From an uncultured Chlamydiae bacterium (GTDB taxonomy: Bacteria; Chlamydiota; Chlamydiia; Chlamydiales; JAJFMA01): DNA of 64,000 nucleotides. Below the pieces are notes generated by a model. That model had not been told where the DNA came from. It made no database searches and worked only from the letters and a program-made list of their open reading frames with translations. Positions 5,522 through 11,756 of this stretch are shown piece after piece. The stretch is taken from assembly GCA_963713615.1 (NCBI GenBank), contig CAVQMM010000001.1, positions 808,667 through 872,666 of the forward strand, given 5' to 3'. Position numbers and translations under genes: made by a program. Numbering within the stretch: position 1 is the stretch's first letter; every line of letters begins with the position of its first letter.

Positions 5522-6097
5522 TTATTTCATGTGGCGATCGAGTAAAGCACTGTACCAGCACGCCACAGGCATAAAGATGGCCCAAACCACGCCTATGATA
5601 ATTAGGGACTGTCCATCAGGCAGAAGGAATTCGGCTGCTCCAAGACGCGCTCCGGCCAAATAGCTCATCACCCCACCGACAGCGCCACAAATCGCAGCTA
5701 TGAGGGGAAAGTTGCGTAGCCAAAATAGCGAATAATCAACCGCTGCCGCAAAGAGAAAGTAGACACCCACCATCCAGAATGGCGGAGCCCACGAAAGATA
5801 GGGGTTAGGGCTGGCATAGCTAAGAACTCCAAAACTCTGATATCCGATGTCCAAGAGGCATCCTGCCAATGTCACGGTACAGAGAAAAACAGCATCTTTA
5901 GAACGTTGATGCGATAGGAAAAAGTGCACAGCCATCAATGCTGCAAGAATCCATAAGCCTTTACCAGGCTCTCCCGCAGCAGCAAAGATCACCAATGCTG
6001 TCCAACCCCCATAGAAGCTTAGACTGTTGAAAATACGCGCAGGTGCTGGACCCGTAAGAAACTTATACATGTATGCTCCCCAACGTCGAAAAATCAT
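5522..6097 (-). CDS. DUF2878-family integral membrane protein
   Basis: 191 aa with about five TM helices. This family commonly sits next to TIGR01777 (YfcH) epimerase genes, as it does here with a 4-bp overlap. Confidence 0.6.
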   Translation of the reverse strand: MIFRRWGAYMYKFLTGPAPARIFNSLSFYGGWTALVIFAAAGEPGKGLWILAALMAVHFFLSHQRSKDAVFLCTVTLAGCLLDIGYQSFGVLSYASPNPYLSWAPPFWMVGVYFLFAAAVDYSLFWLRNFPLIAAICGAVGGVMSYLAGARLGAAEFLLPDGQSLIIIGVVWAIFMPVACWYSALLDRHMK

Positions 6098-6984
6098 CCA
6101 ATACTCAATATATGACGCAAACAGAGTTCAAGATCTGGGAAGGCAAAACTCATTCCTAATGAAGTGAGCCGCTTAGGGACTGCTCGGCAGCTTGCCAATA
6201 ATAGCGCATCGCCCATTTCGCCAAAAATTAGACCAACAGCCATTGCTGGCATAGGAAAGGGGGTAGGGCGTCGTAGTACCCTTCCTAGCACTTTGGTGAA
6301 AGTTGCATTATCAACAGGGTTTGGGCTAACGAAATTTACAGGGCCTTGAAGACGATCGTCAGTCAAAGCATGGCATAGGTGATTGACCACGTCGTCGATG
6401 CCGATCCAACTATAATATTGCCGGCCAGAACCTAAACGTCCTCCAAGGCATAGCTTGAATGGGGTCAGCATCTGCTTTAGAGCCCCTCCATCAGGGCTAA
6501 GAACAATTCCAAAACGTGGTATGACCACGCGAGCTGTCGTCAATCGTTGGGATGCTCTTTCCCAATCAGCGCAAAGATCCGCCAGAAAACCTGTTCCTTG
6601 GCAACTCTCTTCGTCGACGATTTCATCTCCCCGATCACCATAAAACCCTATAGCCGACGCCGAAATAAAGACCTTGGGAGGAGCCCCTGACCGCTGCAAA
6701 GCTTCAACGAGCAGATTTGTCCCTTCAACCCTGCTAGCATGTAGCCTGGCTTTTTTGCTGCGTGTCCAGCGGCCTGATGCAATGCTCTCACCAGCCAAAT
6801 GGATGACCGCATCAAAACCCCCAAGCTTGTCGGTCTGTATGGTCCCTGCCGAGGGATCCCAAACAACATCCGTCGTCAAGACTGGGTGGCGCGTAAGGCG
6901 ACATACGGTATGTCCTGCTGCAATAAGAGAAGGTTCCAAGGCGCGGCCAATGAGTCCGGTAGCTCCTGACACCAAGATTCGCAT
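6094..6984 (-). CDS. TIGR01777-family NAD-dependent epimerase/dehydratase (YfcH-like, DUF1731 C-terminus)
   Basis: N-terminal Rossmann motif MRILVSGATGLIGRAL; AAGGAG RBS 6 nt upstream of this ATG. The track ORF start 54 nt further upstream is less likely. Confidence 0.75.
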   Translation of the reverse strand: MRILVSGATGLIGRALEPSLIAAGHTVCRLTRHPVLTTDVVWDPSAGTIQTDKLGGFDAVIHLAGESIASGRWTRSKKARLHASRVEGTNLLVEALQRSGAPPKVFISASAIGFYGDRGDEIVDEESCQGTGFLADLCADWERASQRLTTARVVIPRFGIVLSPDGGALKQMLTPFKLCLGGRLGSGRQYYSWIGIDDVVNHLCHALTDDRLQGPVNFVSPNPVDNATFTKVLGRVLRRPTPFPMPAMAVGLIFGEMGDALLLASCRAVPKRLTSLGMSFAFPDLELCLRHILSIG

Positions 6985-7038
6985 GACGTTCTCCTTCGTT
7001 TCTGCACCTATTAGTGCTGAAAACGTCGATTTGGTCAA

Positions 7039-9625: not shown

Positions 9626-10362
9626 AGCTTTAACCTCCTAAATAGGCTCTCTGGAATAGCCTTAATAATAGCCATAATATAGCGCCAAAACCACGGCACA
9701 TAAATGATATTTTTACGCTTGTTTAGCGCCTTAACAATCTTCTCACCAATAACTTGTGGGGATGCCACGAGAAACATCCCGGCCTTACCAAAAGTCATTC
9801 CTGTGTCAACAAAGCCAGGCTTCACGGTCATGACATGTACTCCAGCAGGATATAGCCGATTGCGCATGCCTTGAAGGAAGGTCGAAAGCCCGCTTTTTGC
9901 AGCTCCATAATAGTAATTGCTTTGCCGACCACGATCACCTGCCACCGATGAGATACCAATAATAAAACCAGACTTTTTTGCCTCAAAGTAATTGGCACAT
10001 TCACTAAGCACTGAACAGGCACCCACAAAGTTTCTGTTAAGGATGGCCAGTCCTTCAGAGAAGTCCACGACAGCTTTGCTTTGCTCTCCTAAGTATCCAA
10101 AGGCTAAAACAACTCCTTCAAGATCACCAACCTCTTTGACAACTCGACGCACAAAGGGGCCATGAGTGGGAAAGCTCTCTGCGTCAAAGTGGCCACAGCG
10201 CACGACAACGCCGTATCGCGCCACAATATCTGATGCTATTCGCTCGAGTTCTGCATCGTCGCGGCTAGCCAGGAAAAGGCTAACACCCTCCGAAGCGAGG
10301 GCGTTGGCAATAGCTCGCGCAATTGGTGAGGTAGCTCCTAGAATTAATACCGATCCCTTCAT
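9622..10362 (-). CDS. dprE2: SDR-family reductase, DprE2-like (decaprenylphospho-2-keto-ribose reductase)
   Basis: Rossmann motif LILGATSPIARAIA and Tyr-x3-Lys (YYYGAAK). The C-terminal tail VPWFWRYIMAIIKAIPESLFRRLKL is collinear with mycobacterial DprE2. 4-bp overlaps with both neighbours. Confidence 0.75.
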   Translation of the reverse strand: MKGSVLILGATSPIARAIANALASEGVSLFLASRDDAELERIASDIVARYGVVVRCGHFDAESFPTHGPFVRRVVKEVGDLEGVVLAFGYLGEQSKAVVDFSEGLAILNRNFVGACSVLSECANYFEAKKSGFIIGISSVAGDRGRQSNYYYGAAKSGLSTFLQGMRNRLYPAGVHVMTVKPGFVDTGMTFGKAGMFLVASPQVIGEKIVKALNKRKNIIYVPWFWRYIMAIIKAIPESLFRRLKL

Positions 10363-11756
10363 GAAGGATCTCCTAAGCCAAGACGTTTTGAGAGGTCCGA
10401 ACGTATTAATCCTGTGGGATCTACCTGTTTCTTAATTGCCTGAAAGAGCTCATAGTTGGGATACATAGCTTTAAAACGATCCGCATTAAGACGTGCGTCT
10501 TTCGCCAAATAGACCCGCCCACCATAATGGAGGACCATTTCATCAAGCTGATCCAGGAAGGGGAATAAATCTTCGTCGCTTACGGCGATGTCTAGCGCCA
10601 ACGTAAAGCCTGCCCTTGGAAAAGATAAGAGCCCTTTTCCTTGTTCCCCAAAGCGTTTTAACACAGCTAAGAACGAGGCGCGCTGGCTCTTTGCTAGGCG
10701 TTCCAAGATAGCTTTCAAGCCTTCATGAGCCTGTTCCGTGGGTAAGACAAACTGATACTGAATAAAACCCTTTTTCCCATAGATCCGATTCCACTGCCCT
10801 ATGGCATCCAACGGATAGAAGAAGCTGTCATAAGACATCACTTCCAGTCCATTTTTGGAGCTTTGCACGCGGTAATAAAGAGCATTAAAGAGTCGCACTG
10901 AGAAGCTATTAACAAAGGAAAATGGCAAGGAAATGGGAACGGTATACTGCCTAGTATTCGGAAGCTGCAATGGAGCATTCTGAAGCTTTGGCGGCAATTC
11001 ATTCTGCTTTGCATGGTGACCTAAGATGACGATGCTACGCCCTAAGTCAGATCCCGAAGCTAAACAATCAATCCAGGCTACAGAATACTTATCATCCGCT
11101 CCACCCTCGCTAAGCAGACTCATGGCATTAGCCAGGTCCGTTGCAGGATAATGGCGTGCAATGATATAACTACTTTCAATAGGTTGAAGGCGTAGGGCGA
11201 CTTCTGAGATCGTACCTGTTAGTCCCATTCCACCAACGGTAGCCCAGAATAGGTCTGAATCGTATTTGGGAGAGCATCGTCGAACCGTTCGATCGGCAAG
11301 GATCAGCTCTATTTCTTCAATATGTGCCCCTAGTGTGCCCTCGTGATGATGGTTCTTGCCATGAACATCGGCAGCTACGCATCCCCCAAGGGTCGCAAAC
11401 TTGGTGCCGGGTGTTACCGGTAAAAACCATCCTCGAGGCACAAAATGGTGCAAGATAGCCTCCAGGGATAGACCCGGCTCTGCACGTAATAGGCCTGTAG
11501 TGGGTTCAAAATCCAGGATACGGTCTAACCGCTCCGATATCACCACATTCCCGTTAGTGAGCAGGGCCGCATCACCATAGCTGCGTCCTAGGCCCCGAGG
11601 TATAAATGGGCCCTCTATCGCAAACAAATCGCGATAACGCTCGGGACGCAATACCGTCGTCTTTACGACTGGGTAATTGCCCCAACTGGACAGCGATGTA
11701 TTTTCCTGTGTTGGCACTGGCACGATGAGATCCCTCCATCTCCTCATGGTCGCCAT
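10359..11756 (-). CDS. dprE1: FAD-dependent oxidase, DprE1-like (decaprenylphosphoryl-beta-D-ribose 2-epimerase oxidase subunit)
   Basis: Motif-by-motif collinear with DprE1: GLGRSYGD, TPGT..ATLGGCVAADVHGKNHHHEG, LFWATVGGMGLTG, FIQYQFVLPTE, GGRVYLAKD. Confidence 0.8.
   Translation of the reverse strand: MATMRRWRDLIVPVPTQENTSLSSWGNYPVVKTTVLRPERYRDLFAIEGPFIPRGLGRSYGDAALLTNGNVVISERLDRILDFEPTTGLLRAEPGLSLEAILHHFVPRGWFLPVTPGTKFATLGGCVAADVHGKNHHHEGTLGAHIEEIELILADRTVRRCSPKYDSDLFWATVGGMGLTGTISEVALRLQPIESSYIIARHYPATDLANAMSLLSEGGADDKYSVAWIDCLASGSDLGRSIVILGHHAKQNELPPKLQNAPLQLPNTRQYTVPISLPFSFVNSFSVRLFNALYYRVQSSKNGLEVMSYDSFFYPLDAIGQWNRIYGKKGFIQYQFVLPTEQAHEGLKAILERLAKSQRASFLAVLKRFGEQGKGLLSFPRAGFTLALDIAVSDEDLFPFLDQLDEMVLHYGGRVYLAKDARLNADRFKAMYPNYELFQAIKKQVDPTGLIRSDLSKRLGLGDPS

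Follow-up and report, generated by a model that had tools for sequence, protein, structure and literature searches.

Described Systems for Lipid-Linked Arabinofuranose

Among the closest described systems is the mycobacterial and corynebacterial decaprenyl-phospho-D-arabinofuranose (DPA) pathway (Rv3806c, Rv3807c, Rv3790, Rv3791, Rv3789, and Emb/Aft), whose three core enzymes are matched, collinearly, by the products of three genes in a 64-kb stretch of DNA from an uncultured Chlamydiae bacterium (assembly GCA_963713615.1, contig CAVQMM010000001.1; the whole stretch is called the window below). These genes, the triad, encode homologues of DprE1 and DprE2 and a UbiA-family phosphoribosyltransferase. 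The DprE1 and DprE2 genes are adjacent here as in mycobacteria, while the UbiA-family gene lies within the same operon, unlike that of Mycobacterium tuberculosis, which is located about 15 genes away from DprE1/DprE2. The locus also differs from the mycobacterial pathway in that DprE1 is only about 41% identical and carries alanine in place of the cysteine targeted by benzothiazinones, that no PAP2 phosphatase, GtrA-like protein, or Emb/Aft transferase is encoded nearby, that the arabinogalactan context is missing, and that the lipid carrier is probably undecaprenyl and not decaprenyl. In Azorhizobium caulinodans the noeC/H/O/P set contains DprE1/DprE2/UbiA-type genes for the addition of D-arabinose to Nod factor; the likeness is drawn by description, the acceptor there being the Nod factor, while no nod genes are present here.

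In the scheme of Kelly et al. 2024 for three-component pentofuranose systems a polyprenyl phosphoribose synthase (PPPRS) and a phosphoribose phosphatase act together with a flippase and a GT-C glycosyltransferase, and DprE1/E2 homologues are present where the sugar is arabinofuranose (Araf) (PMC11127046). The chlamydial locus shares with these systems both the PPPRS entry step, which starts from phosphoribosyl pyrophosphate (PRPP), and epimerisation of the DprE1/E2 type as the route to Araf (PMC11127046). The layout of such systems in the closest non-chlamydial loci recovered is DprE1-DprE2-HAD-(polytopic proteins)-UbiA-LPG_synthase_TM; compared with this set of HAD phosphatase, flippase, and GT-C/GT136 transferase, the chlamydial operon has no HAD, flippase-like, or GT-C genes in cis, either through loss or because they were never there, and its PPPRS (302 aa) is not fused to a phosphatase domain.

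The system of Pseudomonas aeruginosa Pa5196 is of particular relevance, since decaprenyl-phosphoribose (DPPR) synthase, DprE1, and DprE2 constitute the minimal set for D-Araf glycosylation of its pilin, loss of the phosphatase has only a partial effect, PAO1 can do without the GtrA-like gene, and the gene for the GT-C transferase TfpW belongs to another cluster (bioRxiv 10.1101/2020.04.19.049825). The Pa5196/PA7 cluster (PsPA7_6245-6251) thus resembles the chlamydial locus in its Gram-negative host, in the same minimal set, and in the placement of the transferase elsewhere, with pilin as the acceptor; it differs by an auxiliary phosphatase (6245) and a GtrA-like protein (6247), neither of which is found in the chlamydial operon, the two being compared by description. 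The machinery is known and widespread in bacteria; the novelty here is the host lineage and the minimal three-gene layout, with no new mechanism. The finding adds to the hosts of the pentofuranose systems published in 2024 and shows a stripped-down arrangement of three linked genes.

Core Enzymes of the Operon

The three overlapping minus-strand genes form one operon with preserved translational coupling. The DprE2 ATG shares 4 bp with the DprE1 stop codon (ATGA at 10362-10359), and the GTG start of the UbiA-family gene shares 4 bp with the DprE2 stop codon (GTGA at 9625-9622); Shine-Dalgarno-like sites, AGGAG 5' of ATGA and AGGAGG 5' of GTGA, are spaced by about 8 nt. These overlaps, as well as all six open reading frames (ORFs) that the preliminary description placed at 5522-11756, were recovered (Table 1). 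The database protein P0001, 100% identical to the DprE1 homologue, has 454 aa and starts from GTG at 11723, 11 codons later than the ATG at 11756. The GC content across 5522-11756 is 0.47-0.49, near the range of the remaining window. The promoter/terminator scan gave promoter signal at the background level, the regions upstream of the operon did not align between genomes, and no Rfam match was obtained anywhere in the window.

The DprE1 homologue, assigned as an FAD-dependent polyprenylphospho-ribose 2'-oxidase, is collinear with the mycobacterial enzyme, residues 51-461 aligning to 58-467 of M. smegmatis DprE1 (PDB 4aut, 6.4e-95) at 41% identity. The M. smegmatis and M. tuberculosis DprE1 structures match at 6e-95 to 3e-91, while xylitol oxidase, the next non-DprE1 structure, is reached only at 6e-9. 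The match to the NCBIfam equivalog model NF053785 has 460.6 bits and spans positions 40-449 of the 449 in the model, and the next family has 77 bits. The HGKNHH motif (FAD/substrate) and the AKD lysine, equivalent to Lys418 of M. tuberculosis, are kept, the catalytic lysine being invariant in 201 of 201 aligned DprE1 sequences.

The preliminary description proposed to inspect the residue equivalent to Cys387 of M. tuberculosis (Cys394 of M. smegmatis), the covalent benzothiazinone target, which determines drug sensitivity but not family membership. No cysteine is found at this position, which is occupied by alanine in the window protein and, among 200 aligned homologues, by alanine in 176, threonine in 20, serine in 4, and cysteine in none. 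Benzothiazinones are therefore not expected to act on this enzyme, whose insensitivity is predicted from their established mode of action.

The best PDB match of the DprE2 homologue is M. tuberculosis DprE2 (21gq_C, 2.6e-28), followed by FabG at about 3e-13, which separates it from generic short-chain dehydrogenases/reductases (SDRs). In the NCBIfam search the first place belongs to the SDR family PRK07102 (295 bits, above the cutoff of 267) and the second to the DprE2 model NF053786 (183.5 bits); the catalytic S...YxxxK region of SDRs is kept.

The third protein matches the decaprenyl-phosphate phosphoribosyltransferase model PRK12324.1-2 with 271.3 bits (cutoff 234), and its top four NCBIfam families are the DPPR synthase models PRK12324.1-2, -4, and -1 together with the related UbiA-family PRK08238, while quinone (UbiA/MenA) and heme-o prenyltransferase models give at most 57 bits. 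It thus does not group with the MenA/UbiA quinone prenyltransferases. The best structure is Rv3806c (8j8j, 5.3e-33) against 9e-5 for UbiA (4od4), the NDxxDxxxD and KRxAE motifs align with those of Rv3806c, and 6-8 hydrophobic segments are seen in the hydropathy scan. Judged by these matches, with their large margins over other families, the triad of the window is specifically homologous to DprE1, DprE2, and the Rv3806c-type phosphoribosyltransferase, in agreement with the initial assignment.

Distribution of the Triad

In the neighbour-joining tree the window protein together with P0002-P0006, P0016, P0028, and P0031 forms one 10-tip clade (9 distinct clusters), which is nested among non-actinobacterial homologues in a clade of 139 tips. 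Within the pentofuranose glycosylation systems the operon falls in the widespread Gram-negative branch and not in the actinobacterial one. Intact DprE1-DprE2-UbiA triads were found in five further chlamydia-like assemblies (L003, L083 with accession GCA_964436955.1, L084-86, L088, and L089). The L088 locus keeps the RtcB-LigT-DprE1 synteny and contains CesT and ankyrin genes. Among the four closest genomes the nonsynonymous divergence (dN) is 0.17-0.31 and synonymous sites are saturated, so that no dN/dS value is given; the triad genes are therefore under purifying selection, and their conservation in this small chlamydial clade is established. The triad appears to be a real trait confined to one chlamydial clade, whose ancestor probably acquired the operon once. 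The suggestion that it had not been reported as a chlamydial trait agrees with the literature searched, which contained no paper linking DprE1 or decaprenyl-phospho sugars to chlamydiae.

Outside chlamydiae the picture is much broader. The DprE1 homologue search at E<=1e-30 returned at least 8000 proteins, and the best 120 clusters among them are all 52-100% identical to the query, compared with 41% for M. smegmatis; source labels among the homologues listed include Pyrinomonadaceae, Blastocatellia, Chthoniobacterales, and Nitrosomonadales. The genome scan used one genome per GTDB species and peptide patterns derived from the query, and therefore cannot prove that the triad is absent in other chlamydial families; it matched 189 loci, of which 80 were listed. 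The labels of these 80 loci come from about eight phyla (Pseudomonadota, Bacteroidota, Armatimonadota, Cyanobacteria, Hydrogenedentota, Calditrichota, Bacillota, and Chlamydiota), with labels such as Gallionellaceae, other Betaproteobacteria, Rickettsiella, Chitinophagaceae, and Aeribacillus. Of the 80 loci, 62 contain a DprE2 homologue and 54 a UbiA homologue, many loci being short contigs. The opinion that the triad is rare outside actinobacteria is not consistent with these numbers or with the published description of the system (PMC11127046).

A side result of the scan concerns the clusters of Gallionellaceae/Nitrosomonadales and Chitinophagaceae (L004-L019, L023-L063, and L087), which combine DprE1, DprE2, HAD phosphatase, and UbiA with large polytopic proteins, some of them TPR-bearing, and in some cases with LPG_synthase_TM, the gene order differing between the two groups. 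This composition suggests that Araf-type glycosylation may be common in both.

Accessory Functions near the Triad

The accessory genes of related loci were considered separately, and the negative results for the 64-kb window rest on Pfam scans of all larger ORFs and on a hydropathy scan. No GT-C, PAP2, or GtrA-like protein was found in the window, nor a flippase of the MATE or SMR type, in accordance with the early remark that it holds no GT-C transferase. The Pfam scans gave no HAD phosphatase in the window, nor did tblastn with 43 HAD proteins of related loci, and no window match to LPG_synthase_TM or to other accessory neighbour proteins of relatives was obtained. The polytopic ORFs of the window are only DUF2878, UbiA, an SPFH protein, a P-type ATPase, and a CDF transporter, and the window proteins without Pfam match (1047, 538, and 725 aa) are not polytopic. 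Of the "complete" DPA pathway initially proposed, the three core enzymes thus stand, but no gene for the DPPR 5-phosphatase, either PAP2 or HAD, was found in the window, and "complete" is too strong a word for that step.

In relatives such genes are frequent. An HAD hydrolase of about 200 aa (PF12710) lies directly 3' of DprE2 in 43 of the 80 loci; an LPG_synthase_TM protein, presumed to be a flippase, follows UbiA in 13 (12 Gallionellaceae/Nitrosomonadales/other betaproteobacterial and one Aeribacillus); and a 9-TM protein of about 546 aa is encoded upstream of UbiA in 32, mostly Bacteroidota. Several Gallionella-type loci have polytopic proteins of 530-650 aa between HAD and UbiA, some of which end in TPR repeats or weakly resemble DUF2079. 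The unlabelled locus L087, with 59% DprE1 identity, has the order DprE1-DprE2-HAD-UbiA-LPG_synthase_TM.

Two proteins of the chlamydial loci were evaluated as candidate transferases and rejected. One, of 422 aa, is encoded in L003 between the UbiA and oxidase genes and proved to be soluble and coiled-coil; the other, a TPR protein of 523 aa from L088, lacks transmembrane segments.

Proposed Pathway and Alternative Explanations

According to the homology of the three enzymes, it is quite probable that the operon makes a polyprenyl-phospho-D-arabinofuranose donor, most likely undecaprenyl-P-Araf. We infer the chemistry, the lipid carrier, and the parts played by the missing phosphatase, flippase, transferase, and acceptor as follows. 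The UbiA-family enzyme would convert PRPP and polyprenyl phosphate to polyprenyl-P-ribose-5-P, and a phosphatase encoded outside the operon would remove the 5-phosphate. The FAD-dependent DprE1 homologue would then oxidize the 2'-OH of ribose to a ketone, which the DprE2 homologue would reduce with NAD(P)H and inverted stereochemistry to polyprenyl-P-D-Araf. Finally, the lipid-linked Araf would be flipped and transferred to its acceptor by an unlinked GT-C transferase. An active operon would mean that a lipid-linked D-Araf donor is made by some environmental chlamydiae, whose surface would then presumably show a sugar not produced by their eukaryotic hosts; this would broaden chlamydial envelope chemistry and offer the Araf epitope as a handle for host-recognition studies in a clade of which little is known.

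Several observations weigh against this assignment. The DprE1 homologue with its 460.6 bits remains below the NF053785 equivalog cutoff of 500, which is probably tuned to actinobacterial sequences, and the DprE2 homologue with 183.5 bits is below the NF053786 equivalog cutoff of 250. No phosphatase, flippase, or GT-C was found in the window or within 10 kb of the triad in the five further chlamydial assemblies, and the use of the donor is therefore putative.

The same low scores, together with the identity of only about 41% to the mycobacterial enzymes and the fact that related systems deliver ribofuranose or xylofuranose depending on the epimerase (PMC11127046), could be explained if the enzymes act on a polyprenyl-phospho-pentose but with an end product other than D-Araf (the ribose or 2-keto intermediate in direct use, or another epimer) or on a different lipid carrier. 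This explanation is unlikely, however, because xylofuranose systems rely on a different, single SDR epimerase, DprE1/E2 pairs accompany Araf wherever the glycan is known (PMC11127046), and the P. aeruginosa DprE1 makes D-Araf at 33% identity to the M. tuberculosis enzyme (bioRxiv 10.1101/2020.04.19.049825); in addition, the catalytic lysine and FAD motifs of the chlamydial DprE1 homologue are intact.

Another possibility, to which we give a similarly low weight, is that the triad forms one six-gene pathway for an unusual glycolipid with the three genes beside it, which encode an amine-oxidase-fold FAD protein, a YfcH-type SDR, and a DUF2878 membrane protein. The block is kept in four genomes, its proteins being 59-72% identical (DprE2 up to 79%), and L084 keeps it despite a different upstream context. 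At the same time, synteny in these close relatives extends to TypA, RtcB, and the riboflavin genes, so that adjacency may reflect relatedness alone. Only L003, L083, and L084, which are the three closest chlamydial relatives, have the three genes beside the triad, and these are near it in 0 of 79 non-chlamydial loci among those listed, so that the earlier proposal of a common glycoconjugate pathway was not borne out. The chlamydial loci L088 and L089, which are more distant, lack YfcH and DUF2878, and their amine oxidase is only 35% identical and located beside an ABC transporter. The flanking genes belong to transcription units apart from the triad, the oxidase gene being convergent with the UbiA-family gene (4-bp 3' overlap) and the YfcH-DUF2878 unit divergent from the oxidase gene. 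Furthermore, DUF2878, FAD oxidoreductase, and SDR genes recur in cfa-type lipid operons without DPA genes, such as the Aeromonas operon of DUF2878, SDR, FAD oxidoreductase, DUF1365, and cfa (cyclopropane-fatty-acid synthase) (PMC10012899). According to these data the oxidase, YfcH, and DUF2878 genes are judged to be a separate, probably lipid-related module: the amine-oxidase-fold protein is probably not part of the donor pathway, and YfcH and DUF2878 are judged to stand outside it as well. The three genes may nevertheless have a lineage-specific link to the triad, and their products may modify the same lipid-linked product.

The operon could also be what is left, in decay or without function, of a system that was acquired horizontally and then lost its phosphatase, flippase, and transferase, as the HAD, LPG_synthase_TM-type, and polytopic GT-C-like genes of many related loci are missing here, but this is highly improbable. 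Six assemblies have the three ORFs intact, dN amounts to 0.17-0.31 at saturated synonymous divergence (dS), and the catalytic residues and translational coupling are preserved. The triad alone also suffices in Pseudomonas, where the transferase is unlinked (bioRxiv 10.1101/2020.04.19.049825); this minimal requirement argues against reading the chlamydial operon as decay.

The host genome is considered chlamydia-related, as originally described, and this assignment is supported but not proven by TypA matches and by synteny. The named TypA matches are Chlamydiales (three), Rhabdochlamydiaceae, and Chlamydiales bacterium STE3, the chlamydial hits having 68-71% identity, and the closest genome locus, in the metagenome-assembled genome (MAG) labelled "Chlamydiales bacterium" GCA_030679955.1, shares the triad and the RtcB (78% identity), LigT-like, ribBA/ribH, and AsmA-like neighbours. 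The 100% DprE1 match (P0001) lies on a single contig of 3,904,876 bp; were this a chlamydial chromosome, its size would be unusual for the phylum, in which genomes are smaller. One TypA protein, P0122, 85% identical to that of the window, is labelled "Nitrosomonas sp." and comes from a 6.9-kb contig of a public MAG, into which this contig, itself chlamydial, was probably mis-binned. That the segment itself is non-chlamydial, a mis-binned or chimeric piece from another Gram-negative, is the least probable explanation of all: it can refer to this single label and to Nitrosomonadales/Gallionellaceae as the nearest labelled non-chlamydial homologues, but is opposed by the location of the 100% match within one such long contig, by the uniform GC of the region, by the position of the triad between housekeeping genes (TypA, RtcB, and ribBA/ribH) syntenic with the Chlamydiales MAG, and by the remaining named TypA matches, all to Chlamydiales or Rhabdochlamydiaceae, against a Nitrosomonas-labelled contig of just 6.9 kb.

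With synthesis of a polyprenyl-phospho-D-Araf donor in a chlamydia-related host as the preferred explanation, a possible though clearly more tentative extension is that the small environmental chlamydial clade could decorate a surface molecule (lipooligosaccharide, polysaccharide, or protein) with D-Araf by means of an unlinked GT-C transferase. If true, Chlamydiota would thereby gain their first Araf glycoconjugate, and some chlamydial envelopes would hold more than a truncated lipopolysaccharide.

Flanking Genes and Other Features of the Window

The positions of the triad, of its flanking genes, and of a dispersed repeat are collected in Table 1.

Table 1. Location and family matches of the triad, the flanking genes, and the dispersed repeat in the window.
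Feature	Position	Strand	Length	Family match
DprE1 homologue	10359-11756	minus	465 aa (longest ORF)	FAD_binding_4/ALO, NF053785
DprE2 homologue (SDR, 2'-keto reductase)	9622-10362	minus	246 aa	PRK07102, NF053786
UbiA-family polyprenyl-phosphate 5-phosphoribosyltransferase (Rv3806c/PPPRS type)	8717-9625	minus	302 aa	PRK12324.1-2
Amine-oxidase-fold FAD protein	7326-8720	plus	464 aa	Pfam Amino_oxidase
YfcH/TIGR01777 SDR-type oxidoreductase	6094-7038	minus	314 aa	TIGR01777
DUF2878 small membrane protein	5522-6097	minus	191 aa	PF11086
GCGGTCGCTTGCGACCGC repeat copies	14026-14043, 15329-15346, 24803-24820, 38362-38379, 38509-38526, 42896-42913, 61232-61249

The amine-oxidase-fold protein is assigned by Pfam Amino_oxidase (1.2e-35), and the structure search gave no close solved homologue; HemY and UDP-galactopyranose-mutase-like identities were rejected, the matches being weak, N-terminal, and at the Rossmann level only. 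The YfcH-type protein scores 316 bits against TIGR01777, above the cutoff of 207. The DUF2878 protein (PF11086, 2.6e-33), whose gene overlaps that of YfcH by 4 bp, was considered as a GtrA-like flippase and rejected, as no GtrA similarity was found even at E<=5. In Vibrio DUF2878 is annotated in the PhrR regulon (PMC12971978).

On the other side of the operon a Ser/Thr kinase gene (11858-13603) is located upstream and is absent from that position in relatives. The GFO/IDH/MocA gene (14190-15185) was rejected as a conserved partner, its counterparts in L083 and L084 being 25-26% identical and none being present in L003. Two same-orientation copies of the GCGGTCGCTTGCGACCGC repeat flank this gene beside the operon. 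The repeat has this 18-nt palindrome as the core of a dispersed intergenic unit of about 65-80 nt, with seven copies against 0.01 expected; it looks like an element of the repetitive extragenic palindrome (REP) or miniature inverted-repeat transposable element (MITE) type and has no Rfam match.

Several further features of the window were recorded. A 349-aa protein (1879-2928) has its sole match in NCBIfam CFI-box-CTERM (72 bits) and no Pfam family. Two ORFs are likely gene fragments, one of 172 aa (30099-30617) with only a partial Ser/Thr kinase domain, and one of 275 aa (35308-36135) that joins pieces of the N- and C-terminal phosphoketolase (XFP) domains; the 36-39 kb stretch is poor in long ORFs. 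Adjacent paralogues of about 490-500 aa (47577-49076 and 49280-50749) each contain a GIY-YIG nuclease domain in their middle part and match no other family. Finally, a complete IS66-type unit occupies 58436-61062 and consists of a 130-aa ORF, a protein similar to IS66 Orf2/TnpB (58854-59435), and a 514-aa DDE transposase (59518-61062).

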